A stretch of DNA of 64,000 bases, from positions 88,006-152,005 of the forward strand of contig JBBPIH010000008.1 in assembly GCA_038040455.1 (NCBI GenBank), in the 5' to 3' direction. The stretch is from Acidobacteriota bacterium. Its GTDB lineage: Bacteria; Acidobacteriota; Blastocatellia; UBA7656. A program made the position numbers and the translations under genes. The stretch's first letter is position 1. Every line of letters starts with the position of its first letter. Positions 16,157 to 34,600 of the stretch are shown piece by piece. Under the pieces are notes generated by a model. The model did no database searches, was not told where the DNA came from, and saw only the letters and a program-made list of their open reading frames with translations.

Positions 16157-16179
16157 TTGGCGTCAAGCGGATCGTCGGC

Positions 16180-16275: not shown

Positions 16276-16284
16276 TCCCAGCTG

Positions 16285-19200
16285 CTACACCTCTCCGATG
16301 CCTTCCTTTCTTCTTATCCGAAACTTCTCGTAGCGGCACACCGCCGAGAAGTCGCAGTGTGGGCAGGTAGCTTCTGGGGCTGACGGGTCGACCTGGAATT
16401 GGCCTGCGCGTATGCCGTCGATGAATTCCCAGACGCGAGCTTCCATCTCGGCGCGAATCCTGTTCCACTCTTCGTCTGTTAGCGTTGAAGACGTCCTCTT
16501 ACTCACTGCGGTATAGGCTTGTTGCACGGCTCGATACAAACCTTGATTACGGCGACTCGAGCCTCCCCTCATCGTGTAGTAGCCACCGCCGGCGATCGCA
16601 CTTCCGGGCATGAACAGTTGTTCGAGCGCCGCGAGATAGAGGTGAAGCTGCAAGGCTCGGCCCTCTTGCATGTCGTCGAGCCCAGCACCCTTTGAGAGCT
16701 TGTAGTCATAAGCAATCGCGGTCCCATCGTTCGCAATGTCGACTCTGTCAATCTGCCCGCGAACGCGCACGGTTTCACTCGGATCGTCCGAACCGCGACG
16801 GAGTTCGAGACTCTGATCAGTTGAGCCCGGATCAACCGCGTCCCCTCTCATCCCAAACGCGAGCTCGAAGTAAGCAGGTCTTACATCCTTGGATCGCGTC
16901 TGCTCTTGAACAGTCAGCTCATAATCCAGCACCTGTTCAAGCAGCAGCTTCCTTATCTGTTTGTCGATTTGCCAGACTTGAGGATTGAGAGGCGGCACGG
17001 CACGCTCGTGCTCGTAGAACACGGCATCAGCAACCTCGCCAAGCTCGCGTCTAAGCTCCGCCCGATCAAAGTCGGTAAGCCGCTCGCGTCGATGGCGTGC
17101 GAAGAATCGCCTGAGCGCTTCGTGCAACAGGCTCCCTGCATCAAGCGACGTCAGATCGAGCGCGGCTTCACCTCGCGGATCAAGTTTGAGCACTTTCTCG
17201 GCGAAGAACTTGAACGGGCACTTGCCGTAGAGGCTCAGCTCGCTTGCGCTGAAGGCGTGATCCGCGCCGTACTGCTCCTGGAGTCTTGCAATCAAACTCG
17301 CGGCGCTGATCACGCCGTCAAACTTTCCGAACCACCGGCTCGCTCGCTCGCGTTCTATCGCAATGCGCCGCCGCGCCGATTCGCTCAAGTATCCTCGCTC
17401 GGACGCCGTCGCCATCAACCGAGCGATGACTTCTTCCGGAAAGTTCCCTTCTCTTTGAGCTCGATGCCGGTGCCTCTCTTCCTGCCGCACTAACATCACT
17501 GCAAGCTCCGAGCTTCGCGACGAATCAAACAGCGTGCGCCCATCGAAATCGCCTCGCACAACCTCTTTCGTAATCGGGCCTGGCGCAACTGCCCGACCAA
17601 GCTCTTCGATGTAATAAGACGCTACGGTCTCCGAGCCGTCTTCGAGCACCATCGATCTGCTCAGATAAAGCCGCTCGGTCGCGCGGCAAGCCGCTTGATA
17701 GAAATAGTGCTCCTCCTTGAGCAGCGTGTCGGGCGAGATGTCCTCGAGCGTCAGACCGTATTGCTTCAATCGCTCGCGCTCTTCGTGCGGATATATCCAG
17801 TCGCGCGAGGCGCGCAACGGGAAGCCGCCTTCGACTAGCCCGGCGATGAACACTGCACGAAAGCGCAATCCGCGAACATCGGTTACTTCGAGCACTTTCA
17901 ATCCATCCGGATCGGCATGGCTAGTCACCAGCGATTGCGCTCGCAAGCATCGCATCGCTTCATCGAGAAAAGTTGTGAGCTTGATCGTTGATACCGAGTC
18001 GCCTTCACTCACAACGCCTTCGGACATCTCGATGCTTCGGGCGGCGGCGGCAAGGGCGCGGCGCAATCCTTCGAGCCCGCGCAGATCGAGCGTCAACGCC
18101 GGAAGCTCGGCATCCGCAACAGAACCGGGCTGTGAGCCGCGGACCCCGCCGGCAAACTGAAGCTGATCAAGGAGCCGCATAATCGCATCTCGCAGCTCGA
18201 GGGGAGGAGCTTCGCGAGTTGCTCCTCCGATTAACCGGGCGGTGCGCTCGACAACGAGAGCTGACCACGCGATCAACGCGGGGTGAACTTCGCGCGAGGG
18301 CCTGGGTTTTCGCTCAGAGCCTGGAAGCGGGACGTCCACTGGCTCCGCGCGTTCGACGCGCCGCTTTACAGCGCTGGTCGCTTCGCCCGAAGCTGCGGCG
18401 CTCTCGTCATCTGAGTCTGATTCATCTTCGAGATCAGTTGCGAGGAGCTTCTCTAAGTCCGGCGCGGGCCGTAGAGCAGTCAATTGCCGTGCGCGCTTCA
18501 GCCATCTGTCTGCGCGCAACTCGCCGCCCGCGAATGCGATCACGTTCTCAAGCTCGTCGGCGTCCCAGTTGCCGACGTTTGTTTCGTCGGGCCCTCTAAG
18601 AAATCCCGCGATGCCCAGCAGATGTTCGTGCTCTTGATTGAAGCGTTCGCGCAATGCATCCAACTCGGTTTCCGATAAGCGGAAGTAGCCGGACTTCACC
18701 AGGTCCGCCAGCTCGCTCATCTTTGCGGTTGTACCTTCCTCGCGATTCAGCTCGATCAACATCTCAAACAGTTTTAGAGCCGCGCGCACTGCCGGCACTT
18801 CTATCAGCGCGGTGCGGCGGCCGAGCGCGCAAGGAATTCGCTCCTCCTGGAAGACCCGAGCGATCGTGTCCTCATAGGAAGCGCGCTCGCGGACGACAAC
18901 CGCGACGTCGCTCGGGCGGTAACCTTCAAGCAACACCAGCCGCTTGATCTCTTTCGCTATCTCGCGGATCTCAGTCTCCCGGTTTCCACAATCGAGCAGA
19001 CTGATGCTGAGCGATTTCTCGGGCGAGTCCTGGGAGCGCAGGCATCCTTGCCTGCCTGGCGTTGCGCGAGAAGAGCCAGGCAGGGATGCCTGCGCTCCCA
19101 GGCCGGCAGCTTCGGCCGCGCACTGCTCATTGGCGGATGAATTGAACAATCGCTCGCGCAGGAGAGACAGCCCAGCCGCCACCGGCTGGGCTTCAGCGTC

Positions 19201-20109
19201 TTCGCGTACTTCGAAGTCGGCGATAGATTTCAGTTGATCAATCGTTCGCTCGAACGGGCGAAATATCTCCGCGTTGCGCTGGTCTCGGTTGAGGTTGACG
19301 ATCACCTCGGCGATCTGTGGGATTAGCAGCCTGAGCATCTCCCCCTGAACCGGAGTGAAGTCAAAGAAGCCATCAACCACCAGCAACCGAACGTCGGAAA
19401 GCCACGGCACGCTCACTTTCCTTCCGTCGACTTCGCCGCGCAAAACTTCCAGGGCGCGCAACTGATCGGCGTCGTCGTCAGTCAGGCCGAAGCGGTCGAG
19501 CGCAGCCGCATACGCCGAGTAGATCAATCCAATCTCTCGATCGAAATCGATCTGGAGCGGAATAGGGTGCTCGGTCGCGGCCGTTGAACCGCTGCTCTCT
19601 TGAGCGAGCGTCGGGTAGAGGTCGCGGGCACGAGCTTCAACGATCGCGTTAAACTCGGCTTGAGTCTTCGCCGCGCGTTGAATCTCGCCTATGAGCTTTG
19701 CGATGGTGTTGATGCAGCCGTCTCGATGCGCGAGCGGCGCGATGGCTCTAAGCCTGCCCTCGCGCGCCAGGCGCTTGATGATCTGCGAAATCAAGCTGCG
19801 TCTTACTGGAAGCTCTTCTTGATCGATTGCGATTCGCGGAGCAAGCGGCAAGCCGGTCTCAACTTCGAGGGTGGTCGCCAGGACGAACCGCGAAAACCCT
19901 CGAAACAGGTGCACCGGCAGCGAGCCCCACACGCCGCGAACCGTGTCGCCGTCGAGCAAACGACCAGCGGCTAGCTCGAGCAACGGGCGCGAAGCGGCGA
20001 GGTACAGCAGCCCTTCAGCCGGTCCGGTGGCAAGCACCTCAGAGGCGCGCTCGAGCAGCCGCTCACGATTGTTGCTCAGGATGGGGGCAAGCCAAATTTC
20101 CCTGGCCAA
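16285..20109 (-). CDS. AddB-like helicase-nuclease subunit (degenerate helicase N-domain, C-terminal PD-(D/E)XK nuclease with Cys cluster), pair 1
   Basis: 1274 aa, lying directly upstream of and co-directional with the AddA-like gene (addB-addA order as in Bacillus). The C-terminal CPHCDFSAVCRYEKF resembles the AddB Fe-S cysteine cluster. No N-terminal Walker A is visible. Confidence 0.7.
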   Translation of the reverse strand: MAREIWLAPILSNNRERLLERASEVLATGPAEGLLYLAASRPLLELAAGRLLDGDTVRGVWGSLPVHLFRGFSRFVLATTLEVETGLPLAPRIAIDQEELPVRRSLISQIIKRLAREGRLRAIAPLAHRDGCINTIAKLIGEIQRAAKTQAEFNAIVEARARDLYPTLAQESSGSTAATEHPIPLQIDFDREIGLIYSAYAAALDRFGLTDDDADQLRALEVLRGEVDGRKVSVPWLSDVRLLVVDGFFDFTPVQGEMLRLLIPQIAEVIVNLNRDQRNAEIFRPFERTIDQLKSIADFEVREDAEAQPVAAGLSLLRERLFNSSANEQCAAEAAGLGAQASLPGSSRATPGRQGCLRSQDSPEKSLSISLLDCGNRETEIREIAKEIKRLVLLEGYRPSDVAVVVRERASYEDTIARVFQEERIPCALGRRTALIEVPAVRAALKLFEMLIELNREEGTTAKMSELADLVKSGYFRLSETELDALRERFNQEHEHLLGIAGFLRGPDETNVGNWDADELENVIAFAGGELRADRWLKRARQLTALRPAPDLEKLLATDLEDESDSDDESAAASGEATSAVKRRVERAEPVDVPLPGSERKPRPSREVHPALIAWSALVVERTARLIGGATREAPPLELRDAIMRLLDQLQFAGGVRGSQPGSVADAELPALTLDLRGLEGLRRALAAAARSIEMSEGVVSEGDSVSTIKLTTFLDEAMRCLRAQSLVTSHADPDGLKVLEVTDVRGLRFRAVFIAGLVEGGFPLRASRDWIYPHEERERLKQYGLTLEDISPDTLLKEEHYFYQAACRATERLYLSRSMVLEDGSETVASYYIEELGRAVAPGPITKEVVRGDFDGRTLFDSSRSSELAVMLVRQEERHRHRAQREGNFPEEVIARLMATASERGYLSESARRRIAIERERASRWFGKFDGVISAASLIARLQEQYGADHAFSASELSLYGKCPFKFFAEKVLKLDPRGEAALDLTSLDAGSLLHEALRRFFARHRRERLTDFDRAELRRELGEVADAVFYEHERAVPPLNPQVWQIDKQIRKLLLEQVLDYELTVQEQTRSKDVRPAYFELAFGMRGDAVDPGSTDQSLELRRGSDDPSETVRVRGQIDRVDIANDGTAIAYDYKLSKGAGLDDMQEGRALQLHLYLAALEQLFMPGSAIAGGGYYTMRGGSSRRNQGLYRAVQQAYTAVSKRTSSTLTDEEWNRIRAEMEARVWEFIDGIRAGQFQVDPSAPEATCPHCDFSAVCRYEKFRIRRKEGIGEV
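19028..19101. repeat. Palindromic repeat family D (CCTGGGAGCGCAGGCATCCTTGCCTGCC...GGCAGGGATGCCTGCGCTCCCAGG) embedded in-frame inside the AddB-like CDS
   Basis: A 31-bp arm at 19028-19058 and its reverse complement at 19075-19101 form a 74-bp hairpin-capable element. It is translated as ...LPGSSRATPGRQGCLRSQDSPEK... within the protein. A second copy lies in an intergenic region at 48873-48947. Confidence 0.6.
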
Positions 20110-20625: not shown

Positions 20626-22134
20626 TTAGAACTCGTCTCCATGGGAGCGGGCCTTTTCCCTGCGCTGCAAGTCCTGGGAATCAGGTTCTTGCTTGTCCAA
20701 ATCATCATCGATCAACCCGGGAATCAGCCCGGTCTCTCCGATGTCCAGCAAGCGCGTGGAGCGGTCAACGATCTCCAGCGGCTCTATATCCTCGCCGGTA
20801 GTCGAGCCAAGCTCCTTGAAGCGCCGCGCAGTGACGAGCACCCGGCCTTCAAATGACCCGACTGCCTTATTGTAAGAGTCGACCGCGCGATCCAGTCCCT
20901 TGCGCACATCCGAGAAGTGCTCGGCGAGAATTCTCAGCCGCTCATACAATTGCCGCCCCAGCTTGCTGATCTGCTGAGCATTCTCGGCCATCTGCTCCTG
21001 CCGCCAGCCATACGAAACGGCCTTTAGTAAAGCGATGAGCGTTGATGGTGTAGCAACGATGACCCGTTGCTCGACGCCAAATTCAATCAAGCCGGGGTCC
21101 TGTTCGAGTGCTGCGCTGAAAAAAGTTTCACCGGGCAGAAACATGAACACGAACTCCGGAGTCGACGGAAGCTGCTCCCAATAAGCCTTGCCGCCGAGCT
21201 TCGTCAGATGAGTCCTAATCTGCCGCGCGTGATCTTTCAGCTTTGCAACTCGCCCCTCATCATCCGGCGCTTCAAGTGCTTCGAGATAAGCCTGAAGCGG
21301 CGCTTTCGAGTCAACGACGATTCTTCTGTCGTTGGGCAGACGAATGATCATGTCCGGCCGCAGCCTGCCGTCCTCTCCTAGCACATTTGGCTGCTCGTCA
21401 AAGTCGCAGTATTCGACCATGCCGGCGATCTCGACGACGCGCTTGAGTTGAATCTCACCCCAGCGCCCACGAACGGTTGGAGACCGCAGCGCTTTGACGA
21501 GGTTTGCGGTTTCGCTTTGCAGTTGCGTCTGAGTTGTGGCGAGAGATTTCACCTGCTCGGTAAGCGACGAGTACGCGGCGGTCCGCTCCTTCTCGACCTC
21601 TCTGATCTTGACGTCGACTTTTTCGAGCGAGTCTTTCAGCGGCTGCACGAGTTCGCCTATCGCCTTCTGTCTGCCTTCGAGGTCGCCCTTGGCGTTCTCT
21701 TGAAATCTTTGAAGCTGCTCGCTCGCGAGCTGAAGGAAAGATTTATTGTTGGTCGCGAGAGCTTCAGCGGACAGCGCTTTGAATGCGTCCGAGAGTTTGT
21801 TCTGCGCGTCTTCGAGCACCCCAAGTTTTTCGGTCGCGCCTTTGCGTTCAGCGTTGAGCTGCGTTTCAAGCGAGCTTGCTTGAGCCAGTAGCCTCGCGTT
21901 CTCACCCTGGAACTCCGACAGTCTGGAGTTAAGCTCGTTCAGGCCGGCTTCGAGCGTGCGCGCTTGCTGGTCCTTGCCCTGAAGCCGTTCGACAAGCGTG
22001 GCTCGCTCGGCTTCGGATTCACTTCTCGCACGTTGGTACTCGTGTTTGATTCTGGAGCGAGCCACGAACCAGACGGCGATGCCGCCCAACGCGAGTCCAA
22101 GCAATAACATCAGGATCGGCTCGTTGTCGCTCAA
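20626..22134 (-). CDS. rmuC: DNA recombination protein RmuC
   Basis: N-terminal TM helix, a long coiled coil, then the conserved RmuC C-terminal domain ([30 protein letters not shown]). Length 502 aa. Confidence 0.85.
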
Positions 22135-22149
22135 CTCGGCGCACTCTCC

Positions 22150-22581
22150 TTACTTGCCCGACTTGCTCGGGCCGTCCGCAGCCGGACTCGACCCCCAGGC
22201 ACGTTTGCTACTCATCAAATAATATGTGGCCCCAGCTATTGGCAAGAACAGCACCAGCATGACCATACCTACGCCTTCTGATTCTGACCTCGCGAATTTC
22301 ACCATTGCCCTAATGTCGAGCGCTATGGTCAACCATACTATTGCACTCCCAACTCCCACCAGCGGTCTCGGATCCAGTGTGCCTGTTGTAGTAGATACCA
22401 GGCTGCTAGGCAAAAGGAGTAAGCAAACGGCTGAGACAAGTAAAAAACACAACAGTGCGGCGAATATCAACAATATCTTTGCTGTGGCGGCACGAACTAA
22501 GCTTATCGTACTTTTGAGGCCTAGAATCGTGATCGCAATAGCTGTCAGCCAACATAACCACAAGGAGGCCAGAGGTCTCAT
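22150..22581 (-). CDS. Small integral membrane protein (3-4 TM helices), unknown function
   Basis: Hydrophobic segments LASLWLCWLTAIAITILGL, ILLIFAALLCFLLVSAVCLLLL, AIVWLTIALDI and MVMLVLFLPIAGATYYLM. GC is lower than the surrounding genome. Its stop lies 16 nt before the rmuC start. Confidence 0.5.
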   Translation of the reverse strand: MRPLASLWLCWLTAIAITILGLKSTISLVRAATAKILLIFAALLCFLLVSAVCLLLLPSSLVSTTTGTLDPRPLVGVGSAIVWLTIALDIRAMVKFARSESEGVGMVMLVLFLPIAGATYYLMSSKRAWGSSPAADGPSKSGK

Positions 22582-22647
22582 CCAGTAAGACCTCCAGACC
22601 GTGCAAAAGTATGAGTTCGGCGAATCCCATTAGGGGGTCCGTCGGTA

Positions 22648-23874
22648 TCATCTTCCGAAGATTGACACCATGCGCTCGTACACCTTCCGCGTCACTCGCA
22701 CGTCGTTCAAGTTGTACTCGCGAATCTCGCCGAGTCGTCCCGCTTGATACAACTCGAACACGCGGCTTCCATCAATTTCGTCCGTTTTGCTCGATTCGAT
22801 CCCGAGCGCCCAAGCGATGTCATCAAGCGCGACGCGGTTCTTCGCGCCTAACCACCAGCGATGCATCGTGTCGTAGACGCCTCGAACATTGAACTCAGAC
22901 AGATTGACGAAGGACCGAAAGCGGATGTTGTTCACCAAACAGCGTTGAAAGATGAACGGCAGATCAAACCCGATGACGTTGTGCCCCACTATCTCGTCGA
23001 TGTCTGGATCGAAGCTTCGCATCAGCGCAAGGAAATCCGTCAGTGCTTGTTGCTCGCTTTGTTCTTGTCCTTCGGCGTCGATGCCAAGGACATCTTCGCT
23101 TTCGCCCTGCTCGACACCTTCTATTTCGACGCCCGCGACCGTCCCGATGTGTACGGCTATTGAAAGGACCCGTCCCGATGTTGCAGCGAGCGAGCCCGAT
23201 CTGTAAGCACGCTCTTCTTCAGCAGCCTGGTCTTCGAAGTACCTCTCCTGTTGTTCCTCGTTCATCTTCCCGAGGTTCATCGCTCGGTTCAACCGTTGCG
23301 CAGCGCGTTCCTTGAATGCCAGAACCGGGATGGTTTCGATATCGATTGTGAACGCACGCGGCAGAAGCGGATCTGCGTTCTGCAGCTCGCGATACTTTTC
23401 GATAGTAATCGGTCTGAGTTCTGAGACCACGAACTGCGATTGACCCTGAAAGATCTCAGCCCGTCCCACGATTCCCCACAATCCCGGCTGGATCGATGCG
23501 CCGGTCTGAAGGACCTCACTTGGTAGTTTGAGAGCGATTGTTCCGCTGGCATTTCGTGCACTGGCGAGGAGGAAAGGCCTGGCCTGCTGCGGCCTGACCT
23601 CGCGCACCGAAATCACGACGACTGTCAGCCAGACTTCGTCTCCCGCATTCAAGTCAGGAATCGGGATGTTGCCCTTCATTGGTGAGCGCACCTCTTTCGG
23701 TCTACTTGAACTCGTTAGCCAGCGAACATGGTTCTTCAATTCGTCGCTCGCTGAGTTGAGAAGGCGCAGCGATCGACGCATCGACACGTCGGCATTCAGG
23801 GCGCTGTCGGCTTGCAGCTTAGCAAAGCAAAACCCATAGATGTACGATTTCGATGATGTCCACCTCACCATCAC
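22648..23874 (-). CDS. Predicted 3'-5' exonuclease (DEDDy/DnaQ-like fold) with N-terminal OB-fold-like domain
   Basis: Exo I FTIDIETIP, Exo II IVGHNVIGFDLPFI and Exo III YNLNDVRVT motifs are all present. The N-terminal region EVWLTVVVISVRE...ALKLPSEVL looks like an OB fold. The true start is probably internal (M near 23781 or 23679), since the full ORF overlaps the upstream gene. Confidence 0.65.
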   Translation of the reverse strand: MMVRWTSSKSYIYGFCFAKLQADSALNADVSMRRSLRLLNSASDELKNHVRWLTSSSRPKEVRSPMKGNIPIPDLNAGDEVWLTVVVISVREVRPQQARPFLLASARNASGTIALKLPSEVLQTGASIQPGLWGIVGRAEIFQGQSQFVVSELRPITIEKYRELQNADPLLPRAFTIDIETIPVLAFKERAAQRLNRAMNLGKMNEEQQERYFEDQAAEEERAYRSGSLAATSGRVLSIAVHIGTVAGVEIEGVEQGESEDVLGIDAEGQEQSEQQALTDFLALMRSFDPDIDEIVGHNVIGFDLPFIFQRCLVNNIRFRSFVNLSEFNVRGVYDTMHRWWLGAKNRVALDDIAWALGIESSKTDEIDGSRVFELYQAGRLGEIREYNLNDVRVTRKVYERMVSIFGR

Positions 23875-24535
23875 AACGACGTTTGTTTCGCGAACGGTAG
23901 CGCGCCGTGGTTGCGCCCTGAACTAAGAATGTGAGCTTTTCCGTGGATTCCCAAAGACCTGATAAATCTCGGTTTGACGCCATCTCTTCAATCCAACTAT
24001 TCACCTTTTGGTACCAAGTAGGGAAATCTTGTTTCTGCACGTAGCCGAGCATCGTCCAAGCCGCCGCATTCTTGCCGTGAATTCCGAGCTTGAAGCGCTC
24101 TACGCCGCCACTCTTCTGGTTCGAACCAATCAGATATTCGCGCTCTCTTGAGCTCGGTGGCGGGGACGGGAGGCGCTTCGCCTCGATAGCCATCAGCGTT
24201 TCTTCCGGGGCGTATGAACGGGCCTCGAATGCAGTGGCGGTCGTCGTCACTGCCTCAACGTCCACGCTAGGGCTGGTTCCAGTGCTTTCGTCCTGCATCC
24301 CTTCATGGTGAAAGTACAGGAGCTTGTGGCAATTCAGAATCTTGCATAGGCGGTTTGTGATACCCTTCTCATTCTGGATGCTATGCTCCCTTCGCTCAGC
24401 GAACTCACCCAGCCCTTTCTCGATCACATCCAGAACGGCGTCGCGAGAGATACAGGGCAGTGCCGTCCCATCCAATCGACCCGCCGGAAGGAACTCCTCA
24501 GGAACTGCTTTCAAGTGATATTTATCGGCAAGCAT
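23819..24535 (-). CDS. Hypothetical protein with PD-(D/E)XK-like motif (candidate restriction endonuclease partner)
   Basis: SVDVEAV...MAIEAKRL fits a D-x(n)-E-x-K nuclease signature. 238 aa, low GC. Its start is 8 nt downstream of the methyltransferase stop on the same strand. The assignment is tentative. Confidence 0.4.
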   Translation of the reverse strand: MLADKYHLKAVPEEFLPAGRLDGTALPCISRDAVLDVIEKGLGEFAERREHSIQNEKGITNRLCKILNCHKLLYFHHEGMQDESTGTSPSVDVEAVTTTATAFEARSYAPEETLMAIEAKRLPSPPPSSREREYLIGSNQKSGGVERFKLGIHGKNAAAWTMLGYVQKQDFPTWYQKVNSWIEEMASNRDLSGLWESTEKLTFLVQGATTARYRSRNKRRCDGEVDIIEIVHLWVLLC

Positions 24536-24542
24536 AAGGGCC

Positions 24543-27500
24543 TCAGAGGCCTTGGCTCCTTAGGTACGCGAAGGTATCGTCGGCGTCGCGGATGGCCATA
24601 GATCTCAACCAGTAGCGTAGCGTCTTAGGTTTGATCAAGTAGATGACGTCATCTTCATAAATGGAGAGGATTCGAGTGATTCGCACACTAGGGCGATGAT
24701 GGCGTTCTGTCAGTTCCCGCAAGGCTTCATCAAGCTCAGGACTGAGGGAATCCGGTAGCTTTGGTGCCTTCTTGAAAAAGAACGGATAACAGACATGAGT
24801 GGCCGTCTTGCGTGGTGAATCAGCTTTCAAGCCTGGATAGATTGAGCCAAGAAAGTCAGTGTATGTCGTGCCGAAGGCTTTTAGATCGCCATCGGCGGCG
24901 CTACGCATCACGCGGGCCTTTTCGCCCGCGCGACGGTAAGGCAGCCAGTACATTAGGGCATCATCCCGCAATACTGTCTCCCACTCGTTCAACTCCAGGT
25001 CGGAAGCGGACTTCGGATACGGCAGGTTCAAGATATCGGCAGCTAAGATCGCTGATGATTTATTTACGGCGAAACGCCCACTGCCAATGAGCAAGGCAAA
25101 GTTTAGTGTCTTATTGCGCGCTAATCTTGTCTCCATTTGGCGAAGCTCTTCTTCATGAGGCGCATGAATCGCAAAGACATCGTGCTTGAAGGTCAGATAG
25201 TCCGTCCGCAATTCGGCTGGGATACCCGCGTCATAAGCGCGTTCTGCAATCAGTAAATGCGGTTTAGAATAAATCGCTTGCTGACGAGGCGCGCTGAAAT
25301 ACCTTGTATTGACTGTGCAGATTGCTTGTTCATCAATTCCGTTTGCTCGAAAGGCCCCTGTGGGCAGAAAAGGCTTGCCTGTGATGTAGGACGCGGTCTT
25401 GCACTTTTGCTCGAGCATTCTAAACTCGGCTGCCTCTGATTCATTGTGCGTCGCGCGAGTTTTGAGAAGGGCCTCGTATCGACGGACATGTGCACCTTTT
25501 GATACGATAAATCCCTCGCCCCAATTCCACCGTTCCTTTCTAGCCTCCAGATATTCTTTGAGTTTCGGAAGAGTGTTTAGACGACGCGCCAAATGACCCA
25601 TGCGCCCCCCTCCAATGAGATTGGCTTTCCAGACTGTTGGTTCATTCAATGCGACCTCGCGAGGTATATGGTGAAAGTCATAGCGATCCAATTCAAAGGC
25701 GATGTGTTCTTTAACCGAGCGCGTGCGACGAACTGTGACATGGAGCACAGGCCGCGAAGCCTTTATCTCGTGCGCAAAGACGGCAGTAAATGCGATATCT
25801 CCCCGAGCCCCGAAGATGACACGGCAGGCGTGGGTGAAATCGAGTATTTGCGGAACGTCGAAGCGTTCGAGAAACGATTTTCGGAACGCTTGCGCGCCTT
25901 GATTGTAAAGCATAGGAGCCGCTGGTTCGATCAGGCAGGTGAGGCCTCCCGGTTTCAGAAGTGACATTGCTTGTTCGAGGAAGAGCAGCGCAATCTGTTT
26001 ATTTGGCAACTCCGGTCTTACATTGTGCTTTACTAGAAGCGCGTCTATCGTAGCGGCCTGCGGAGTCAGTTTCTCGGCGAACGGCGGATTTCCAATCACT
26101 AGGTCGAATTTCTCAGAAGCCTCACCCCAGCGGTTCATCTTGATCTGCTCGAAAAAATCACCTTCCACAATGTTTTTTCCGCGCAACTTATCAAACTCGA
26201 GAGTCTTCCAGATTTCCATCGGTTCCAACTCAGAACACAGTGCGATCGACAGACTGAAGAGTGTCAGGCTTACCGCTTCCGGATCGAGGTCGACACCGTA
26301 GATATTGTCTCGCAACAACCCCTTCAGAGTTGCCAGGTCAGGTCGCTGCCACTCGTTCGCCAAACGCCAGCGAGCGATTAGACGGCGATAGGCTCCCACC
26401 AAGAAAACCCCTGAGCCACAGGCTGGGTCAAGAATACGAAACTCAGTCGAACCGACAATCGGCATCGACTCTGCCAATAGGAAGTCGACAAGGAATGGCG
26501 GGGTGTAGACGACACCTTGGTTGCGGTTGGTCGAGGTACCATCCGTGTCGGCCGAGTCGCCGGAGCGTTGGTTCTTTTTATCTGCACCGAGGAACTCCTC
26601 ATAGATGTTGCTAATGAGTTCCACTGGTAGGTGGTTGAAGGAGTAAAGTGGCCAGAATACCCTTTGTGTGCCTGACTGTCCCGCCAAGAAGTCCGCCAGC
26701 CCTGAGAGATCAGCTTCGGTGAGGTAGGCTCGCTCACTTTCCGTAAGTTCGAAAGCATCGCCGTTGAATCGACTTGAAAGCCGATCAAACAAGGCGACCA
26801 GATTGCCACCTGCTCGCACTACGCTTGTAAAATCCGTTGCCCCGGGAGCGAATTCTTCAAAGAACCCCTCATGATAGGTAGTGCCGTTTCGGTTTTCTCC
26901 AGCCTTCGGAAAGACTCCGAGGCCCGTCGAATCGGCGCGATCTTCCAGGTAGCGCACGAGCAAAGCCATAACGAGCAAACGGTTGGCGTGGCGCTTGTCC
27001 AGCTTTCCTTTGCGAATTAGCGATCGTCGGATATCCCGGAGTTGGCGCAGCATTAGGCCAAAAACGCTATGCTCCCGCTTGGCGTCGCGCAGGTTCTCGT
27101 TTTCAGAGTTGTCCCAGAAAGTGCCTATGTCAAGTTCGCGCAATCTCGCCTGGAAAAGATCAATCCCCCGCTGAGCCTTTGCCGCCAGGTTAATGACCTC
27201 AAGGGGTGCGGGTTGAACTGTTGCACCTTTAAGCTTGGGTGCCTTCAGTGAGGAAAAGATCTGAATCTCACCATGCACGAAAACAATGAACAACGGAACA
27301 GGACAGGCATTCCAGAGTTCCTTGTGCAGCTCGGATAGTTCGGGGAGGTTCACGCGCGCGAATAACGGTTTTTGTGTGTAATCATACACATAAGCTTGGG
27401 CGTAGCGCTTCGGTAGAGGACGGTCAATGTTGTGTCGGAAATAAACATAGTCAGCTTTGTGTTCCTCAGCAGTCTCCAATGCCAAGTACTCCTCAGGATG

Positions 27501-27596
27501 AAGATCCGTCCTTTCCCGAAAGTTCGCCACCGGGACGAGCTGGTCAAGGCTAGCCTCGTCGAAATTCTGAGTGATGTCATCAGTCAGTCGGTGCAT
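24543..27596 (-). CDS. Large N6-adenine DNA methyltransferase, Type IIG/IIL-like architecture (N-terminal domain of unknown function, gamma-class MTase, C-terminal target-recognition region)
   Basis: SAM-binding motif I ILDPACGSGVFLVGA and catalytic motif IV VIGNPPF. 1017 aa. About 350 aa lie N-terminal to the MTase core and about 300 aa C-terminal. GC is about 50%, below the rest of the window. Confidence 0.8.
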   Translation of the reverse strand: MHRLTDDITQNFDEASLDQLVPVANFRERTDLHPEEYLALETAEEHKADYVYFRHNIDRPLPKRYAQAYVYDYTQKPLFARVNLPELSELHKELWNACPVPLFIVFVHGEIQIFSSLKAPKLKGATVQPAPLEVINLAAKAQRGIDLFQARLRELDIGTFWDNSENENLRDAKREHSVFGLMLRQLRDIRRSLIRKGKLDKRHANRLLVMALLVRYLEDRADSTGLGVFPKAGENRNGTTYHEGFFEEFAPGATDFTSVVRAGGNLVALFDRLSSRFNGDAFELTESERAYLTEADLSGLADFLAGQSGTQRVFWPLYSFNHLPVELISNIYEEFLGADKKNQRSGDSADTDGTSTNRNQGVVYTPPFLVDFLLAESMPIVGSTEFRILDPACGSGVFLVGAYRRLIARWRLANEWQRPDLATLKGLLRDNIYGVDLDPEAVSLTLFSLSIALCSELEPMEIWKTLEFDKLRGKNIVEGDFFEQIKMNRWGEASEKFDLVIGNPPFAEKLTPQAATIDALLVKHNVRPELPNKQIALLFLEQAMSLLKPGGLTCLIEPAAPMLYNQGAQAFRKSFLERFDVPQILDFTHACRVIFGARGDIAFTAVFAHEIKASRPVLHVTVRRTRSVKEHIAFELDRYDFHHIPREVALNEPTVWKANLIGGGRMGHLARRLNTLPKLKEYLEARKERWNWGEGFIVSKGAHVRRYEALLKTRATHNESEAAEFRMLEQKCKTASYITGKPFLPTGAFRANGIDEQAICTVNTRYFSAPRQQAIYSKPHLLIAERAYDAGIPAELRTDYLTFKHDVFAIHAPHEEELRQMETRLARNKTLNFALLIGSGRFAVNKSSAILAADILNLPYPKSASDLELNEWETVLRDDALMYWLPYRRAGEKARVMRSAADGDLKAFGTTYTDFLGSIYPGLKADSPRKTATHVCYPFFFKKAPKLPDSLSPELDEALRELTERHHRPSVRITRILSIYEDDVIYLIKPKTLRYWLRSMAIRDADDTFAYLRSQGL

Positions 27597-28015
27597 TTGT
27601 GGTAATTATCACTCGTAGGAGTTAACCGAAATTTTGTATGCTTAATCGGTGCTCGATGCGGGCAATCTTAGGGCTTGCTTCCATTCCTCAATCGCTTCTC
27701 CGACCCAGGATGAGTCCAAAACGCTCTATGACGCTTACAGTGTTGTACTGAGCAAATCAGTCATTACTGAAGAGACGGTATTCGGAACCATTTGCATAGG
27801 TAGTCTCTTTCAGATCTGCTAAGCCGCTACAGTATGTCATCTGGTTCCCATCGTGAAAGCAACCGCACGCGACTTCGCGGAGTTGCAGGTTGAAACAATC
27901 AAAACGAGGGTTTCGAGGCCTATGCTTGCACGATACGCACGCCCGCGCAAGTTGAATTGCGCCTGCGGAACGCAGGTCATAAGGTGAGCGCATACTTATT
28001 GTCCCAAGTTCTGGG

Positions 28016-31000
28016 CTATAGCCGCAGCACCACGCCTCGAACCGCGAGGCGTGTCGACCGTGAGATTGCAATGGAGTACAGCGCGACCTGCTGACGATAC
28101 TCCTCCAGCCTTCCAGCAATCTCGAAGTCCGTTTTGAAATCTACCACGATCCACGTCCCAGGATCGGATTCCTCAACGAACGCCAGGTCGACTATTCCTT
28201 CCACGAGCACTCCATCCTCAAGCCGCAACGCTATCGGTGTCTCGCGCCGGCACCGACCCGCAAGCGAAGCCGCTGCCGCGCGCCGCATAAGCGGATGAGC
28301 CAGCGCCCGCGTCACCGTGTCAGTTGCCGCGGTGATTTCTTCCTGGGTCGCTCCGAGAAGGCGGCCTTGTAGAACTGCTACTGCTTTTACCCGTTTCTCG
28401 TCGGCATTCAGATCTACCACCGACAGCATTGCGTGCACCAGAATCCCGAAACGCTTTCCGTGTGGGCGCGAGAAGTCGATGCCCACTGATTCAACAGCGA
28501 CCTCGAACGTCGATCGAGGCGGCGGTGGGGCGGCGGCAAACAGATCTAACTGTCCAACTGTTCCGGGAGCTTGCTCGGGCTTACGCGACATCGTCGCAGC
28601 TCTTTGCTCTTTGCTCTCTGCCCTTTGCTCTTTGCCCTTTGCGTGCTCCGTTGCTGTGACTACTCTCAGGCTCGGCGCGCCGGCTTGCTCACGAATGCGC
28701 GCGCGGTTCTCTTGCCAATCTGCATGATCGCGAATGCCTCTCTCTGAGCGCTCGCTTTGCTCGTCGGCAGCCAGCAGCTTGTTCAGCCTGGCACCGATTT
28801 CATCCTGCCTGTTCAACTCGAGCACCGACGGGTCCCACCAAACCACCGTGTGCTCCCCCGCCTCCAGTTTGTGCAAGCCGGGCGTCACCGAGCCTTGTTT
28901 GCGCAGGCCGTTGCTCGGGCGAACCGCCACGTTGTCCGGGCCGAACTCGGGACAGCCAGGGGGATGATTAGTCTCGGGTTTGAAGCTCTCCTTCACCGGC
29001 GGATAGATCGCTGGATCGAGCGTTGCCAGCCAGCCTTCGCGGCGTTCATCTCCGACAGCCGTAACAACCAATAGGTCCCGCGCGCGAGTCGCGGCAACGT
29101 AGAGCACTCGCGCGGCTTCTTCGCGTTCAAGCTGCAACTCGTCGTCAGCATGTTCCTGAAGCTCGGGCGGCAAGCACCCCGCAAGCCTCATCACGCACAG
29201 TCCGGCTTCAGTGTCAGTCCAACGGGAAGGCTCGCGTGCTTCTTTCGCAGTCATATCGGCAAGCACGACGACCGGGAACTCGAGACCCTTCGCTTTGTGC
29301 ACGGTCATTATGCGAACGCCTTCGGCTCCTTCTTCGATGATCGGCGCATCGCCCGCTTCGCCGTTCTCTGCCTGATCATCTAGCCAGTCGACGAACGCCC
29401 GGAACGAAATCAGACCGCCCTGCTCCGCTCGCCTGGCCATGTCCATCAGCCGAGTCACGTTAGCGAGCGCCTGTTCTCCAGTCGCCCAGTTCGCAAATCC
29501 GGCGTGCGCTCGCGTGGTCGCCAGCAATCGCCCGATAGTATCGGCGACCGGCCGTCGATTCCGCCCGCGGTGAAGCTCTCGCAAGACCGCGAGCGCCTCG
29601 ACGACTTCGACCAGCGATTCAGGCAAGTCCTCGGGCACTTGTTTGAACGGATGCAGAGTCGAAAAGCGAGATCGATAAGATAGAAGCTGCGCATCGTTGA
29701 TCGCAAAGAGCGGCCCCTTCAACGTAGCGAACAACGCGAGCTCGTCATCGGGCCGCTCGATGGCGGCAAGCGCATTGCGAATAGCTTCGACTTCTTCACG
29801 CGAATGAAAAGAGCTTCCGCCGACGAGCAGGTGAGGCAATCGTCTCGCTTCGAGGGCGCGAACATATGGCCGGGTAACATCGGTCATGAAGCTGCGAAAC
29901 CGGCGGAAGAGCAAACAAACATGTCGAGGTCGAATCGGGACTCGCACGTCCGGGTGTTCGCGCTCGGTGACTGACCATCCGCTTTCGCGCACGAGCCAAT
30001 CGACGAACGCCGCTACACCGTCGGGCAAGGATTCGTCGATTTTCCACTCGACCACTTTGCCGTAATCGCCGTAGGGCGCGGGCACCGGCAGCGCGATGAG
30101 GGCTGGCTGGGTTTCAGCGCCGGATCTGAATTCCGCGAGTGGAACGTACCGAGCCTGAGTTGAGCCCGCCTTCAAACTGGCCCCAGGAGCCGCATTCGGA
30201 TTGGCACCCATCACTTGTGAGAATGCCGCGTTCACCGCTCGTTGAATCGCAGGCACAGACCTGAAGCTGACGTTCAGTTCTACGAGCGCTCCGCCTGTCG
30301 AGGTGACCTGCCGCTTCACCTGTTCGTACAGCGCCACGTCGGCACGCCGGAAGCGATAGATAGACTGCTTCGGATCGCCGACTATGAAAAGCTTGCCGGG
30401 CACCGGGTGGGCGCGACGCCAGTCCTTCTCACTGGGATCGTCTGCTGCCAACAACATCAGCAGTTCAGCTTGAAGTGGGTCCGTGTCCTGAAATTCATCC
30501 ACGAAGATATGAGTGAAGCGCCGCTGCAGCTCGGCTCGCACAGACATGTTGTCTCGCACGAGGTCGCGCGCGCGAAGCAACAGGTCAAGGAAGTCGACGC
30601 AGCCGGCGCGCTCTTTCAAGCGTTCGTATTCCTCGATCACCGACGACAGCTCCTCGCGCAATCGCGGGGCGAGGTCAGCCCCGGCCTCATCGACGAAAGA
30701 CTGCAGGCTCTCTTTCAACGCGTTGCGCCGCGGGATCAACTCATCTCTCGGGTAGCTGAACTTGCTCGACGCATAGCCAACCCACTTCCAGTGCTTGCCG
30801 CGGTTCATCTCGGTGAGCGCAGCTTCAAGGCCGTCGTAGTCGCGCTCGGCAACCTCTTCAACGCGCTTGATGTCTTCCACGAACACCTTGATTTCTTTGA
30901 GCGACTTCAAAAAGTAATCGTTCGCACTGCCCGCGTCCGCCCACTGTGCGAGCGAGGTCATCTCCGCAATCAACGCATCTATCGCTGCTTCTCGATCGAA

Positions 31001-31654
31001 GTCAGGATTGCGCCGCCACGGAGCCGGAAAGTCACGGCGCTCGATTAACTCTCTGGCGGCGCCGCGAAGCGCTCGCCTGGGACCCGTGTCCCGCGGACGG
31101 CGCGCAAGAATGCCGGGTAGGTCTCTTCGGTATTCGCGACGTGGGCGTCTCCTGAGAATGCGTCGAACGGCCTCGCCCGGGCTTGCAAGCTGTTTTTCGA
31201 ACCAGCGATCGAATGCGAGATCGAACAGCGGCCGCGCGGTGTCTTCCGAAGCCACTTCAAACAACGGATCGATGCTCGCTTCGACCGGGCGCTCGCGCAG
31301 GAGATCAGCGCAGAAGGAATGAATCGTGCCGATGCGCGATTCTTCAAGCTCACGAAGCGAGTCCGTTAGAAGCTTATGCGCTTGAGGCGGACAGTTCTTG
31401 TCCTGCCGACATTGTTCGATGGCATCTCGCACACGGAGCTTCAATTCACCGGCGGCAGCATCAGTGAAAGTGACGGCGACGATCTGATTCAGGCGCACGC
31501 GGCCCGACTTAATCCCGGCGACGATGCGCCCGACAAGCTCGCTGGTCTTGCCCGTCCCGGCGGCCGCTTCGACAACAAGAGTAGTCTCTAGATCGTTGCG
31601 AATCCGGTCCCGAGCAGCTTGATCGGCGAGCAGCTCTTTTTGAGTTGTTGTCAC
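28016..31654 (-). CDS. AddA-like ATP-dependent helicase-nuclease, pair 2 (paralog)
   Basis: Walker A EAAAGTGKTSEL and UvrD motifs (AVTFTDAAAGEL, FVDEFQDTD, IVGDPKQSIYRFRRA). The C-terminal RecB nuclease motif is GIVDLAF...VVDFKTD. Length 1212 aa. A short tandem 7-aa repeat (KGKEQRA/ESKEQRA) sits in the linker. Confidence 0.8.
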   Translation of the reverse strand: MTTTQKELLADQAARDRIRNDLETTLVVEAAAGTGKTSELVGRIVAGIKSGRVRLNQIVAVTFTDAAAGELKLRVRDAIEQCRQDKNCPPQAHKLLTDSLRELEESRIGTIHSFCADLLRERPVEASIDPLFEVASEDTARPLFDLAFDRWFEKQLASPGEAVRRILRRRPRREYRRDLPGILARRPRDTGPRRALRGAARELIERRDFPAPWRRNPDFDREAAIDALIAEMTSLAQWADAGSANDYFLKSLKEIKVFVEDIKRVEEVAERDYDGLEAALTEMNRGKHWKWVGYASSKFSYPRDELIPRRNALKESLQSFVDEAGADLAPRLREELSSVIEEYERLKERAGCVDFLDLLLRARDLVRDNMSVRAELQRRFTHIFVDEFQDTDPLQAELLMLLAADDPSEKDWRRAHPVPGKLFIVGDPKQSIYRFRRADVALYEQVKRQVTSTGGALVELNVSFRSVPAIQRAVNAAFSQVMGANPNAAPGASLKAGSTQARYVPLAEFRSGAETQPALIALPVPAPYGDYGKVVEWKIDESLPDGVAAFVDWLVRESGWSVTEREHPDVRVPIRPRHVCLLFRRFRSFMTDVTRPYVRALEARRLPHLLVGGSSFHSREEVEAIRNALAAIERPDDELALFATLKGPLFAINDAQLLSYRSRFSTLHPFKQVPEDLPESLVEVVEALAVLRELHRGRNRRPVADTIGRLLATTRAHAGFANWATGEQALANVTRLMDMARRAEQGGLISFRAFVDWLDDQAENGEAGDAPIIEEGAEGVRIMTVHKAKGLEFPVVVLADMTAKEAREPSRWTDTEAGLCVMRLAGCLPPELQEHADDELQLEREEAARVLYVAATRARDLLVVTAVGDERREGWLATLDPAIYPPVKESFKPETNHPPGCPEFGPDNVAVRPSNGLRKQGSVTPGLHKLEAGEHTVVWWDPSVLELNRQDEIGARLNKLLAADEQSERSERGIRDHADWQENRARIREQAGAPSLRVVTATEHAKGKEQRAESKEQRAATMSRKPEQAPGTVGQLDLFAAAPPPPRSTFEVAVESVGIDFSRPHGKRFGILVHAMLSVVDLNADEKRVKAVAVLQGRLLGATQEEITAATDTVTRALAHPLMRRAAAASLAGRCRRETPIALRLEDGVLVEGIVDLAFVEESDPGTWIVVDFKTDFEIAGRLEEYRQQVALYSIAISRSTRLAVRGVVLRL

Positions 31655-34600
31655 GGCAATTCCCGGAGCTTCTTAAGCTCAAACAGTCGGTCCCCCGGCT
31701 TGCGCGAGGTTCGGATGTATTCAAGAGGCCCGCACACTGCCCGGTAGTCGCACCAGTCGCACCCGCCTTTTTCCGGTGCCGCTGGAAGAAAGCGATCTTC
31801 GAGCGCACGGCCGATGATCTCAATGACTATTCCCGCAGTACCGCGGCTGAAATCATCGAGCGGAACGATTCGCTCCTCGAAGCCGCCCGCGCCCGTGCAG
31901 TAATAAAGCCGCCCCGATTCGACGGGCGCTTCGAGCAGCTTCTCGCAGGCGAGCGCGTAAAGCACCGGCTGCAGGTGCTGGCCGCCTCCGACGACTACAC
32001 CATCGCGCGCTCGCGCCTTGCCAGTCTTGTGATCGGTCGCGCGAATTTTTCCACTGATGTGGCGCTCGACGAGGTCGATCGAGCCTCGCAGTTTCAATTC
32101 GCCGACGACCGGCACCGGGTCTGCAACGCTCGCAGGGTCTTCGTCTTCGCGACCGCGATCCGCGAGACCGAATGAGAGCTCGAATTTGTAAGGCACCCAC
32201 CCGTCGTCAGCCTCCGACGCTCGGCGAAGCCACTCGCGCAGATCGCCTCGAATCGTGTTGATGCCGTCTTCCCATACACGCGGGATCGCCGGCGCGAGAT
32301 CGTCTTCATAGCGCGACGCGACCCGGTTGAGCACATCGTCGACGAGGGCAATCGCCTGGTCACACGTTGTCGGAGTGAGAGGCAGAAGACCGGCCTCGCG
32401 CAGCAGCGTCAATACCTCATACTGCACCTTGTGGAAGAGCGACCCGCGCGTGAGGGGATCGATGACCTCGATAGCGGCCGGTTCTTCGCGAGGCTGGAGC
32501 TTGTGCACGGCCTGAAGAAAGAATCGATACGGACACGCCGCATAGTTCTGAAGCGCAGTAGGCGAGAATGAACGCGTTGAGAGCTGATGAGCGGTGAGAG
32601 CTTCGCGAGCAAGTTCATCGGGCTCGACCAGCCCATCGCTCGGAGTCCAGCGCTTGAGCCAGCGGCGCGACCGGGCTCGCAAACCTCGCGCGAGATGCTT
32701 ATTAGTCGAGAGCAGATAGTGAGCCGTGCCCGCCACTGCTTCAGGCTCCGCATCGATCAATGGAGCAAGCAAGGCAAGGTCATATTCGGCTTCATCGATC
32801 GCAACCCGAGGGTCGCTCGGCGCGGGCCATCCAAGCCGGCCACTCGCGCCCGACTCAGCGCGCGATACAAGCTTGTCGAAACCAGGAAGATAACCTTCCG
32901 CTGCGCGCAACGCTTCCAGGCCATAGAACGAAGGCACGCGCGGGCGAGCCTGCTGAACGTCGATGCGCGGGTACGACAAATGAACGCGCTCGGAAGCCGC
33001 ACCCACAGCCAGTCTCAGCGCCAGCCGTTCGGCTTCGACGCGATCGGGTTGAGTGATCAGATCCGAATCAGCAACCTGACGGCGCTGCTCATCCAGGAGT
33101 ATCGGGTCCTCGATCAATTTTCTGGGGAAGAGCTTCTCAGCGAGCCCGGGCACAAACACGACGTCGAAGCTCATCCCGCGCGCCGCGCCGGTCGAGCCGA
33201 TAAACACGGCTCCGTAGCGGCGGCGAGGCGGAGCGATCAAAAGCTCACGAAGTCGCGGGGCTAGCACCAGTTGAACCTCGTAAAGATCGACCGGCCCAAT
33301 GGGAGACATCGGCTCGAGCTCGGCCAATGTTTCGAGCACGCCGTCGGGATTTCGAAGCGCGACCTGCGCAAGCTTGCGAAGATGAATCAGCCACTCTCCC
33401 CAAGTCGCGCGGTCAGGCAAGGCGGCAAGCTCATCAATCAGCGGAAGCGCGAATTTGCGCAGGTGTTCAATGTCACGAATCTGTTGATCAAGCCCGGCGG
33501 CACGCGTCTCCTCTCCTTCTTCGATTAGTTCCTGGCGCTTCAAACGCAATTCAGTTTCGAGCCCTTCGATCCTTTTTTTCCACCGGTCTTTTCCGCCGAT
33601 CACCGAGGACTCAACAAGCAATCGCTCCCACCGCCACGGCGCGCGAAGAGTACCTGCAATCTCCGCGGTGCTTTCAAGATCGAGGGGCAACGGTTCGGCC
33701 TCCGACTCTTCGTCACCAGGAGGTTCGGGTTCTACGCCAAGCGGGAGCACGTCGCTCGGAGGGGGCGCCCAGTTTTGTTCCGGGTCGCGCGCAGATTCGG
33801 GATCCGGCACCTGTGAGAGCGAGGTGTACTCGGCGAAGCGTCGCGCGGAAAAGTCATCGGATCTACACGCGAGCAACGCGAGTAACGCGCGCCCCGCAGG
33901 ATCGGGACGCGTCGTGCCTCGAGCGAAGTAAGCGGGAATCGCGGCGCGTCGAAAAGCCTCTTCGAGGTGCGGACGGTACTCCGCGGTTGAACGCAGAAAG
34001 ATCGCGATTCGATCAAATGCGATTCCGCGCGCGGCTTCAGCCTGAACGCGGCGCGCTATCTCGACAGACTCACGGGCTTCGCCAGGTGACGAGTTAAGCG
34101 TGACGCTTTCGTCCATCTTCGACTGTTCCGGCGCCGAGTCTTCGAACAGATGCGCCTTTAATGTCGCGAGCGAGTTTGATGGTTTGCTATTACCGATCTC
34201 TTGAGCTTCACACCGCAGCGCGCGCTGAAGCATCTCGATCGTTCTAGTGTCACCACGCGCCGCAGTAGCAAGAACCGACGGCGCGCGCGAGGCAAGAGCT
34301 TTGATGAGTTGCGCTTCGCGAGTGCTGGTCACCGCAAGATCGAGCAACAGCAACGGCAGACCCACAGGGTGAAGAAGGCTCGCGCTCGTAGTCGCTTCGA
34401 TTGCGGCTTCGAATACCGCGGAGCGATCGGCAAGCTTCGCCAATGTGAGCTCGCGCTCGACGCATTCGGCGAGTGCGGCGAGGTCCGGTCCGCCGCGCGG
34501 CAATCGGCGAATCGCTTCGATGTCCACGGCGTTCATTCGAAGCTCATCCAGAGTTCGGGCTACCGCGCGTGGAAAGCCAGGCCGCTTTGCAACCGGAGCG

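Follow-up and report, generated by a model that had tools for sequence, protein, structure and literature searches.

Five open reading frames (ORFs) on the minus strand of contig JBBPIH010000008.1 (assembly GCA_038040455.1, an Acidobacteriota bacterium of the Blastocatellia) lie close together between two pairs of AddAB-like genes, and their arrangement raises the question whether they form a single novel defense operon or whether genes of different origin have become neighbors. The ORFs, which encode a 1017 amino acid (aa) DNA methyltransferase (MTase), a 238-aa putative nuclease, an exonuclease (exo), a doubtful 143-aa protein and RmuC, were analyzed within a 64,000 nucleotide (nt) stretch of the contig (positions 88,006 to 152,005), which is referred to as the window. 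An earlier note on this DNA had correctly placed the five ORFs and the AddAB pairs on both sides (12167–20109 and 28016–34944) and had proposed a five-gene defense module with the exonuclease and RmuC as accessories. The comparative analysis points to a different unit. The preferred reading, which is given a probability of roughly 0.78, is that the MTase gene and the 238-aa gene constitute a two-gene restriction–modification (RM) cassette that was horizontally acquired and set into a native repair cluster in place of a DUF433/DUF5615 gene pair. The features of the locus are as follows (coordinates are those of the window; GC, guanine plus cytosine content).

35007–35753 (−): DNA alkylation repair gene (PF08713, 5e-39), directly upstream of addB2 and widening the repair-gene neighborhood
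31651–34944 (−): addB2
28016–31654 (−): addA2
27597–28015 (−): spacer of 419 nt between addA2 and the MTase gene, GC 48.9%
27880–27999 (−): remnant of a PIN (VapC-like) toxin gene (3' portion), identified by tblastn with the PIN protein of locus L090
27597–27879 (−): non-coding leader of the MTase gene; the ORF called here has no Pfam or PHROGs match
24543–27596 (−): gene for the 1017-aa gamma-class N6-adenine MTase (Pfam Eco57I, N6_Mtase, MmeI_Mtase)
23819–24535 (−): gene for the 238-aa predicted PD-(D/E)XK nuclease, the candidate restriction subunit
23704–23778 (−): remnant (last ~25 codons) of a DUF5615 (PIN-like) toxin gene, identified by blastn to locus L012
22648–23679 (−): exo, exonuclease gene of 343 codons (PF10108, DNA_pol_B_exo2), native flank
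22150–22581 (−): hydrophobic 143-aa ORF in the variable spacer between exo and rmuC, doubtful as a gene
20626–22134 (−): rmuC (Pfam RmuC, 8.3e-106), native flank
16285–20109 (−): addB1
12167–16156 (−): addA1

The organization of the locus was compared with 80 loci that carry a homolog of exo (one genome per species, nearly all titled Blastocatellia, Pyrinomonadaceae or Acidobacteriota metagenome-assembled genomes) by tblastn searches with all ten window proteins. The exonuclease is 61–85% identical across these 80 Blastocatellia/Pyrinomonadaceae species, the usual arrangement is exo-rmuC-addB1-addA1 with rmuC downstream of exo in ~65 out of 80 species loci, and neither the MTase gene nor the 238-aa gene was detected by tblastn in any of the 80. 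In the closest relatives (L010, L013, and L015–L018) the addB2-addA2 pair is located directly upstream of exo, and the gap between addA2 and exo is 26–165 nt; in L009, another close relative, addA2 precedes exo at a distance in the same range. The GC content at third codon positions (GC3) is 65% in exo, 67.6% in rmuC and 65–68% in the addAB genes, and the overall GC content is 55.5% in exo and 57.2% in rmuC. As both genes keep this context across 80 species from which the MTase and nuclease genes are absent, and as their GC3 is host-like, exo and rmuC are native core genes that lie outside the cassette; they are neighbors of the cassette without a demonstrated link to it.

The exonuclease carries a PolB-type DEDDy 3'–5' exonuclease domain at its C-terminus (Pfam PF10108, 5e-15 and 9e-15 in two scans). 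When PDB sequences were searched with a profile, its residues 7–95 aligned with the N-terminal region of YhaM/Cbf1 (E = 5e-4), a region of YhaM that we take to be an OB fold. The earlier description of an OB-fold DEDDy exonuclease was borne out by PF10108 for the exonuclease domain and would fit the YhaM-like N-terminus for the OB fold, whereas its assignment to a defense module was not, given that exo is a core gene in 80 species. The start of exo was set at the ATG at 23679, which is kept in 22 relatives and was also chosen by an independent gene caller. The complete order addB2-addA2-exo-rmuC-addB1-addA1 is kept whole in the closest Blastocatellia relatives (L010, L013, and L015–L018), and the linkage of an OB-fold and PolB-type DEDDy exonuclease to RmuC and AddAB may represent a lineage-specific recombination or repair operon. 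The 143-aa ORF, which had been read as a membrane protein, has no tblastn match at E ≤ 0.1 in the 80 related loci and no family match in scans of Pfam, NCBIfam, PADLOC and PHROGs. It forms a singleton cluster with Logan gene calls only, another gene caller prefers a 74/81-aa ORF in another frame, and the exo-rmuC spacer that holds it measures 40 nt in L013. The 143-aa ORF is, judged by its lack of conservation, probably not a gene.

The MTase gene and the 238-aa gene were found together in other surroundings. Nine further contexts were inspected (L005, L006, L007/8, and L089–L094), and in each of them the MTase gene is followed by a homolog of the 238-aa gene on the same strand, with a spacing that ranges from overlapping to 69 nt. 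Including the window, the pair is present in 10 out of 10 contexts with unrelated flanks, some of them on conjugative plasmids, and neither exo nor rmuC is adjacent to the pair in any of the other loci that carry both genes. A metagenome scan based on a four-sequence alignment of the small protein revealed an MTase gene immediately upstream in 29 out of 30 loci, down to an MTase identity of 23–27%, and the lone exception has less than 1 kb of upstream sequence. The identities of the MTase and the nuclease drop in step, from 79/79% to 32/33%. By these data the true unit is a two-gene cassette consisting of the MTase gene and the 238-aa gene.

The neighbors of the pair differ between the loci. 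They include an MmeI-type Type IIG enzyme, a DEAD helicase, a T5orf172 protein and an integrase (L005:13982–20005), a UvrD_C_2 helicase and a DUF2290 protein beside a prophage (L006:14037–16897), Fic/RhuM and PIN-MazE genes (L007), and TIR, SIR2 and TIR genes on pORIO6, a conjugative plasmid of Cereibacter azotoformans ORIO (L093:6963–9493). Other cultured carriers of the pair are Maribacter, Pedobacter sp. Leaf194 and Agrobacterium, in the last case on plasmids. Some cassettes contain small non-homologous ORFs just upstream of the MTase gene, and the window cassette contains none. These ORFs encode a 69-aa HTH_3 protein (L006:9747–9956), a 138-aa ORF6N protein (L007:9410–9826) and, on plasmids, 62-aa hypothetical proteins (L093:2867–3055 and L094:2756–2941); they could be controller-like regulators.

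Composition and homology breakpoints both point to the horizontal acquisition of a segment of ~4.16 kb, from ~27978 to 23820, at the addA2-exo junction. The GC content of the segment is 52.3% compared with a window mean of 57.0%, which is the lowest of all 4.16-kb windows in the 64 kb, with values of 48.9% in the leader, 52.3% in the MTase gene and 53.4% in the 238-aa gene. The window is 75–79% identical at the nucleotide level to the cassettes in L089 and L090 over exactly 27614–23823, a stretch that begins shortly before the MTase start codon and ends at the 238-aa stop codon, and these two cassettes adjoin F420 biosynthesis genes (L089) and pilus genes (L090). To the right of ~23781 the window is homologous to L012 (blastn, 72% over 175 nt, into exo), where the corresponding sequence forms the 3' end of a DUF5615 gene (120 aa, 5.5e-17) that is preceded by a DUF433 gene (2e-18); in L012 this gene pair is located between addA2 and exo (L012:717–1439). 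The right junction of the insertion is thus placed within ~23782–23822 and the left junction between the PIN remnant and the addA2 stop at 28016. The PIN remnant matches residues 92–131 of the L090 PIN protein (Pfam PIN, 2.1e-5) with 43% identity (tblastn, E = 2e-8), and the same remnant is present upstream of the MTase gene in L089 (78.7% nucleotide identity over 61 nt). Since L089 has it as well, the remnant travelled with the cassette from its former context and is foreign to the host locus. A 78-aa ORF in the leader was considered as a regulator and rejected, as it represents the PIN remnant read in frame; it has no Pfam or PHROGs match, and no regulator gene was found in the leader, which presumably carries the promoter of the cassette.

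The acquisition of lower-GC defense DNA that the earlier note had suggested is thus supported by the breakpoints and by the lowest-GC 4.16 kb, in a narrower form: the dip in GC content is confined to the leader, the MTase gene and the 238-aa gene at 49–53% and is not a feature of the whole block at 45–52%, and the AT-rich leader is confirmed at 48.9% GC with the addition that it contains the PIN toxin gene remnant. What had been described as a defense island between two AddAB loci is instead a native repair cluster in which one junction has received a single insertion of two genes.

The cassette has replaced a DUF433/DUF5615 toxin–antitoxin pair that is still kept in L012. The addA2-exo junction is empty in L013 (3970–3995) and L018, where it measures 26 nt, it holds a spacer of ~116–166 nt in L009, L010, L015 and L017, a toxin–antitoxin pair in L012, and an RM cassette together with a DUF5615 remnant in the window. 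With these arrangements the junction behaves as a small hotspot for cargo. Insertion and substitution of this kind are known for RM gene complexes (PMC2853133). Neither an integrase or transposase nor terminal inverted repeats were found at the insertion. A 10-mer, TGCGCTCACC, occurs on the minus strand at 23681–23690, 27983–27992 and 30812–30821 (three copies, compared with 0.26 expected in the window), and two of them enclose the non-native stretch that separates addA2 from exo. The repeat was rejected as a target-site duplication because the right copy lies ~90–130 nt past the breakpoint, inside DNA that is native in L012; it may be the trace of an older and larger insertion at the hotspot, or due to chance.

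The 1017-aa protein has the features of a gamma-class N6-adenine MTase. Its Pfam matches (Eco57I, 8e-23; N6_Mtase, 2.5e-12; MmeI_Mtase, 4.4e-7) are all located within residues 356–590, and its translation contains the motifs X (GVVYTPP), I (DPACGSG) and IV (NPPF) in gamma-class order. The DPACGSG and GNPPF residues are invariant or nearly so in 31 homologs, and PF07669 and PF20473 match 31 out of 31 members of the family. The PADLOC profile REase_MTase_IIG (4e-32) aligns residues 182–650 with profile positions 156–596, so that the earlier identification of a Type IIG-like gamma-class adenine MTase held. Taken together, the PADLOC Type IIG models align residues 150–650 with profile positions 119–596 only; the nuclease part of these profiles is, we presume, the N-terminal portion before positions 119–156. 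The protein can be divided into an N-terminal domain (~1–150), a helical linker (~150–350), the MTase core (~350–690) and a C-terminal region with a highly conserved tail. The ~430 aa that follow the core have no Pfam match and are moderately conserved with few gaps, and residues ~690–960 presumably form the target-recognition region. More than 3100 homologs with conservation over the full length were identified, with ~42% identity in Bacteroidota, Omnitrophota, Thermodesulfovibrionales, Aminicenantes, Desulfobacteraceae and others, and the homologs are scattered patchily over at least five phyla.

A nuclease domain in the MTase itself was searched for by several approaches. Residues 1–343 and 587–1017 have no Pfam match in the window protein or in 30 aligned homologs (for residues 1–343 not even at E ≤ 10), and a nuclease family was matched by 0 out of 31 members of the MTase family. 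A profile search of PDB sequences for the fold of the N-terminus matched only the MTase core. An alignment with an MmeI-type protein by hhalign covered only the core, with no similarity to the MmeI_N domain, and an hhalign comparison of the N-terminal domain with the small-nuclease family gave a probability of 0.09. The N-terminus contains two invariant residues (E41 and D72) and a mostly conserved K92, and the motif D...(D/E)xK is absent among the invariant residues of positions 1–150.

The 238-aa protein, labelled "hypothetical protein" by NCBI (the MTase is labelled "N-6 DNA methylase" and the exonuclease "ribonuclease H-like domain-containing protein"), belongs to no family in Pfam, NCBIfam, PADLOC or PHROGs, and 0 out of 100 members of its own family match a relevant Pfam family. 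An exhaustive profile search identified 696 clusters at 50% identity, and nearly all of the clusters listed are stand-alone proteins of 130–270 aa, most of 220–260 aa. In an alignment of 100 diverse homologs E56, E118, K120, L122, E133, Y134, G143, R147 and W195 are invariant, and at least 90% of the sequences share D92, R130, K149, H153 and some further residues. The nuclease signature D...EAK that had been noticed in the sequence is therefore real, and E56, D92 and E118-A-K120 constitute the putative active site. An AlphaFold2 model based on the 100-sequence alignment reached a predicted local distance difference test score (pLDDT) of 92.2; a shallow alignment of 20 sequences had given 47.5, which was unusable. 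In the model E56 opens a helix (56–67), D92 is located just before a strand (93–97), and E118 and K120 are on a strand (113–122). The predicted structure thus displays the classic PD-(D/E)XK arrangement and resembles a BamHI-like nuclease.

The features of an RM system are accordingly present in the pair: an MTase with intact S-adenosylmethionine (SAM)-binding and catalytic motifs, and an adjacent gene for an endonuclease with a catalytic site. The 1017-aa protein would bind a specific sequence through its C-terminal region and would mark host DNA as self by SAM-dependent N6 methylation of adenine, and the 238-aa protein would act as a Mg2+-dependent PD-(D/E)XK endonuclease that cuts DNA without the mark. 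No characterized member of this system was found in a search of the literature (REBASE not included), and the pair appears to represent an uncharacterized but widespread RM family.

Two arrangements of the nuclease can be envisaged, a subunit that is docked on the MTase and an independent BamHI-style homodimer, and docking is judged to be slightly the likelier of the two. In the docked arrangement the conserved N-terminal domain and the IIG-like linker of the MTase would stand where Type IIG enzymes have their fused nuclease, and the pair would be a "split Type IIG" enzyme that takes its specificity from the MTase. Docking is suggested because the MTase has kept the IIG-like linker and a conserved 150-aa N-terminal domain that lacks a nuclease signature, because the MTase gene always comes first and the nuclease gene is closely coupled to it, and because the nucleases can all be aligned as a single coherent family, in contrast to the diversity that is usual among Type IIP enzymes. 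Against docking, the C-terminal region of the MTase and the nuclease are both moderately conserved with few gaps, which would also fit a family of near-isoschizomers. The most specific form of this idea, in which the pair is an unrecognized split Type IIG system whose Type IIG-like MTase either lost a fused nuclease or never possessed one, and whose N-terminal domain recruits the BamHI-fold subunit while the MTase sets the cut position, is put forward tentatively, with the odds somewhat against it.

Several other explanations of the locus were weighed against a two-gene RM cassette. That all five genes form one novel defense operon, with the exonuclease and RmuC as accessory effectors, is hardly credible. 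The genes are co-directional and the spacers are short: 7 nt from the MTase stop to the start of the 238-aa gene, 66 nt from exo to the 143-aa ORF, and 15 nt from there to the longest rmuC ORF (502 aa) or 39 nt to the 494-aa rmuC of the gene caller, which starts at 22110. The RmuC protein furthermore matches the PADLOC model RTasRmuC (3e-59), and no convincing terminator is located between the genes, although the scans for promoter-like sites (none) and terminator-like sites (9 observed, 8.1 expected) were both uninformative. The tight junction between the MTase gene and the 238-aa gene is real, but the overlap or small gap that the earlier note had given upstream of exo is not, since the 238-aa gene and exo are separated by 139 nt without overlap when exo starts at the ATG at 23679. 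Synteny refutes the operon: exo-rmuC-addBA is kept in 80 species without the MTase and nuclease genes, the pair occurs without exo or rmuC in nine other contexts and in 29 out of 30 metagenome loci, and the five genes do not co-occur across genomes. The host-like GC3 of exo and rmuC, the homology breakpoints that part both genes from the cassette, and the lack of conservation of the 143-aa ORF argue in the same direction. The identity of rmuC is unambiguous. Its Pfam match (8e-106) points to the general RmuC family, and its surroundings lack a reverse transcriptase gene. The observations that the earlier note had named as contrary to its proposal, core genes in a constant context with normal GC, were made for exo and rmuC and not for the MTase gene and the 238-aa gene.

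A less remote, though still unlikely, explanation is that the 1017-aa protein constitutes a complete single-chain Type IIG enzyme whose N-terminus holds a highly divergent nuclease, and that the 238-aa protein is an accessory such as a second-strand nickase partner, a regulator or an unrelated passenger. The length and domain order of the MTase and its PADLOC match (REase_MTase_IIG, 4e-32) fit this explanation, and E41, D72 and K92 in the conserved N-terminal 150 aa could form an atypical active site. However, neither the window protein nor the 30 aligned homologs match MmeI_N or a nuclease family, the Type IIG profiles align only past their N-terminal 119–156 positions, the hhalign similarity to an MmeI-type enzyme is restricted to the MTase core, the invariant N-terminal residues do not include D...(D/E)xK, and the small protein always accompanies the MTase and has retained all of its catalytic residues. 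The cassette might alternatively have no role in defense and consist of an orphan or epigenetic MTase with a co-transcribed nuclease that acts in repair, or serve as a selfish addiction module only. This is considered improbable, more so than the single-chain enzyme. It agrees with the location of the cassette inside a DNA-repair cluster in the window genome and with the absence of a controller protein or mobility gene from the window cassette, and RM systems are known to behave as addiction modules. The repair context is, however, specific to the window genome, and the flanks elsewhere are unrelated to it and often contain defense or mobile genes (MmeI-type enzyme with integrase, DUF2290 helicase, toxin–antitoxin genes, TIR/SIR2 plasmids); the patchy distribution over at least five phyla and the strict pairing of an MTase with a nuclease, which is an RM signature, also speak against it.

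A number of observations weigh against the horizontally acquired two-gene RM cassette as preferred here. The restriction activity and the sequence specificity are wholly inferred. The tests for a nuclease in the MTase were likewise made at the level of sequence, and a divergent nuclease may be fused in the N-terminal domain. The best structural matches of the 238-aa protein are free-standing Type IIP homodimers of similar size, which favors an independent nuclease. At the insertion, the 10-bp direct repeat TGCGCTCACC is off the right-hand homology breakpoint, the exact junctions are known only to within ~40 nt, and an empty-site variant of the same organism was not seen.

Elsewhere in the window, a tRNA gene is located at 55784–55857 (−; Rfam tRNA, 66.4 bits) and is the sole Rfam match of the window at the gathering threshold. 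A 286-aa ORF (51886–52746, +) without a Pfam match is flanked by genes for a cytidine deaminase-like protein and a dienelactone hydrolase, within the kilobase that has the lowest GC content of the window (52001–53000, 43.9%); this region may be another small acquired element.

The locus illustrates how co-directional genes with short spacers can mimic one defense operon where comparative synteny shows a two-gene insertion. A large MTase family (>3100 matches) travels with a small nuclease that is annotated as a hypothetical protein, and defense-finding tools would miss the nuclease or label the MTase as a Type IIG enzyme that stands by itself. Should the nuclease indeed be docked on the MTase, the family would form a link between single-chain Type IIG enzymes and systems of several subunits and could yield new enzymes with reprogrammable specificity. 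If the split Type IIG proposal is correct, it would add a new and widespread family of restriction subunits, with at least 696 clusters, in many phyla and on conjugative plasmids. The addA2-exo junction illustrates on a small scale how a natural hotspot takes up selfish or defense cargo and how cassettes turn over there.

Comparison with known systems places the pair next to several classes of enzymes. The window RmuC matches RTasRmuC (3e-59), which is an accessory of defense-associated reverse transcriptases (DRT), but no reverse transcriptase domain is present in the ORFs that neighbor rmuC, and the locus is not assigned to DRT. PglX of bacteriophage exclusion (BREX) and MAD2 of the methylation-associated defense system (MADS) share the gamma-class MTase core and their models give weak matches. 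The affiliation with BREX PglX that had been considered in the earlier note is not supported by the scores of 31–54 bits against the NCBIfam PglX models with cut-offs of 400–900, and the MTase reaches 42 bits for MAD2 with a cut-off of 720. No pglZ, brxC, brxL or other mad genes were found in the window or in the loci examined. As the scores are far below the cut-offs and the partner genes are absent, the system is neither BREX nor MADS.

The 238-aa protein resembles the BamHI/BglII/BstYI/OkrAI family in its predicted structure, but shares only 8–12% sequence identity with these enzymes. Its catalytic motif is E-x-K, in contrast to E-x-E in BamHI and E-x-Q in BglII, and the enzymes of the BamHI family pair with small orthodox MTases and not with a 1000-aa Type IIG-like protein. 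Type IIG/IIL enzymes (MmeI, Eco57I, BpuSI, and DrdV) are similar to the 1017-aa protein in their size of ~1000 aa with a gamma-class N6-adenine MTase core, in the helical region before the core, which aligns to the PADLOC Type IIG profiles, and in the long C-terminal region, in which a target-recognition domain would be placed. Unlike these enzymes, the MTase has no N-terminal PD-(D/E)XK domain that is recognizable in sequence-level tests, and its constant partner is a distinct nuclease of 238 aa encoded by a tightly linked gene; the MTase also lacks Pfam matches to MmeI_N, MmeI_hel, MmeI_TRD and MmeI_C. The pair would operate as a Type II RM system with an MTase that resembles Type IIG enzymes. 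It is not filed as Type IIG because the fused nuclease, which is the defining feature of that type, fails at the sequence level. Type III Mod and Res differ in that Res is a large helicase-nuclease and Mod a beta-class MTase, and the window system contains no ATPase. In the Type IIB enzymes BcgI and BsaXI, according to two reports (PMC3592470, PMC11997821), nuclease and MTase are fused in one protein and specificity comes from a separate subunit. The pair nevertheless shares with the Type III Mod and Res genes and with the Type IIB systems BcgI and BsaXI an organization in which the modification gene comes first and a tightly coupled nuclease gene follows, and, if the nuclease is docked on the MTase, it would also share with them the location of specificity in the protein that bears the MTase.

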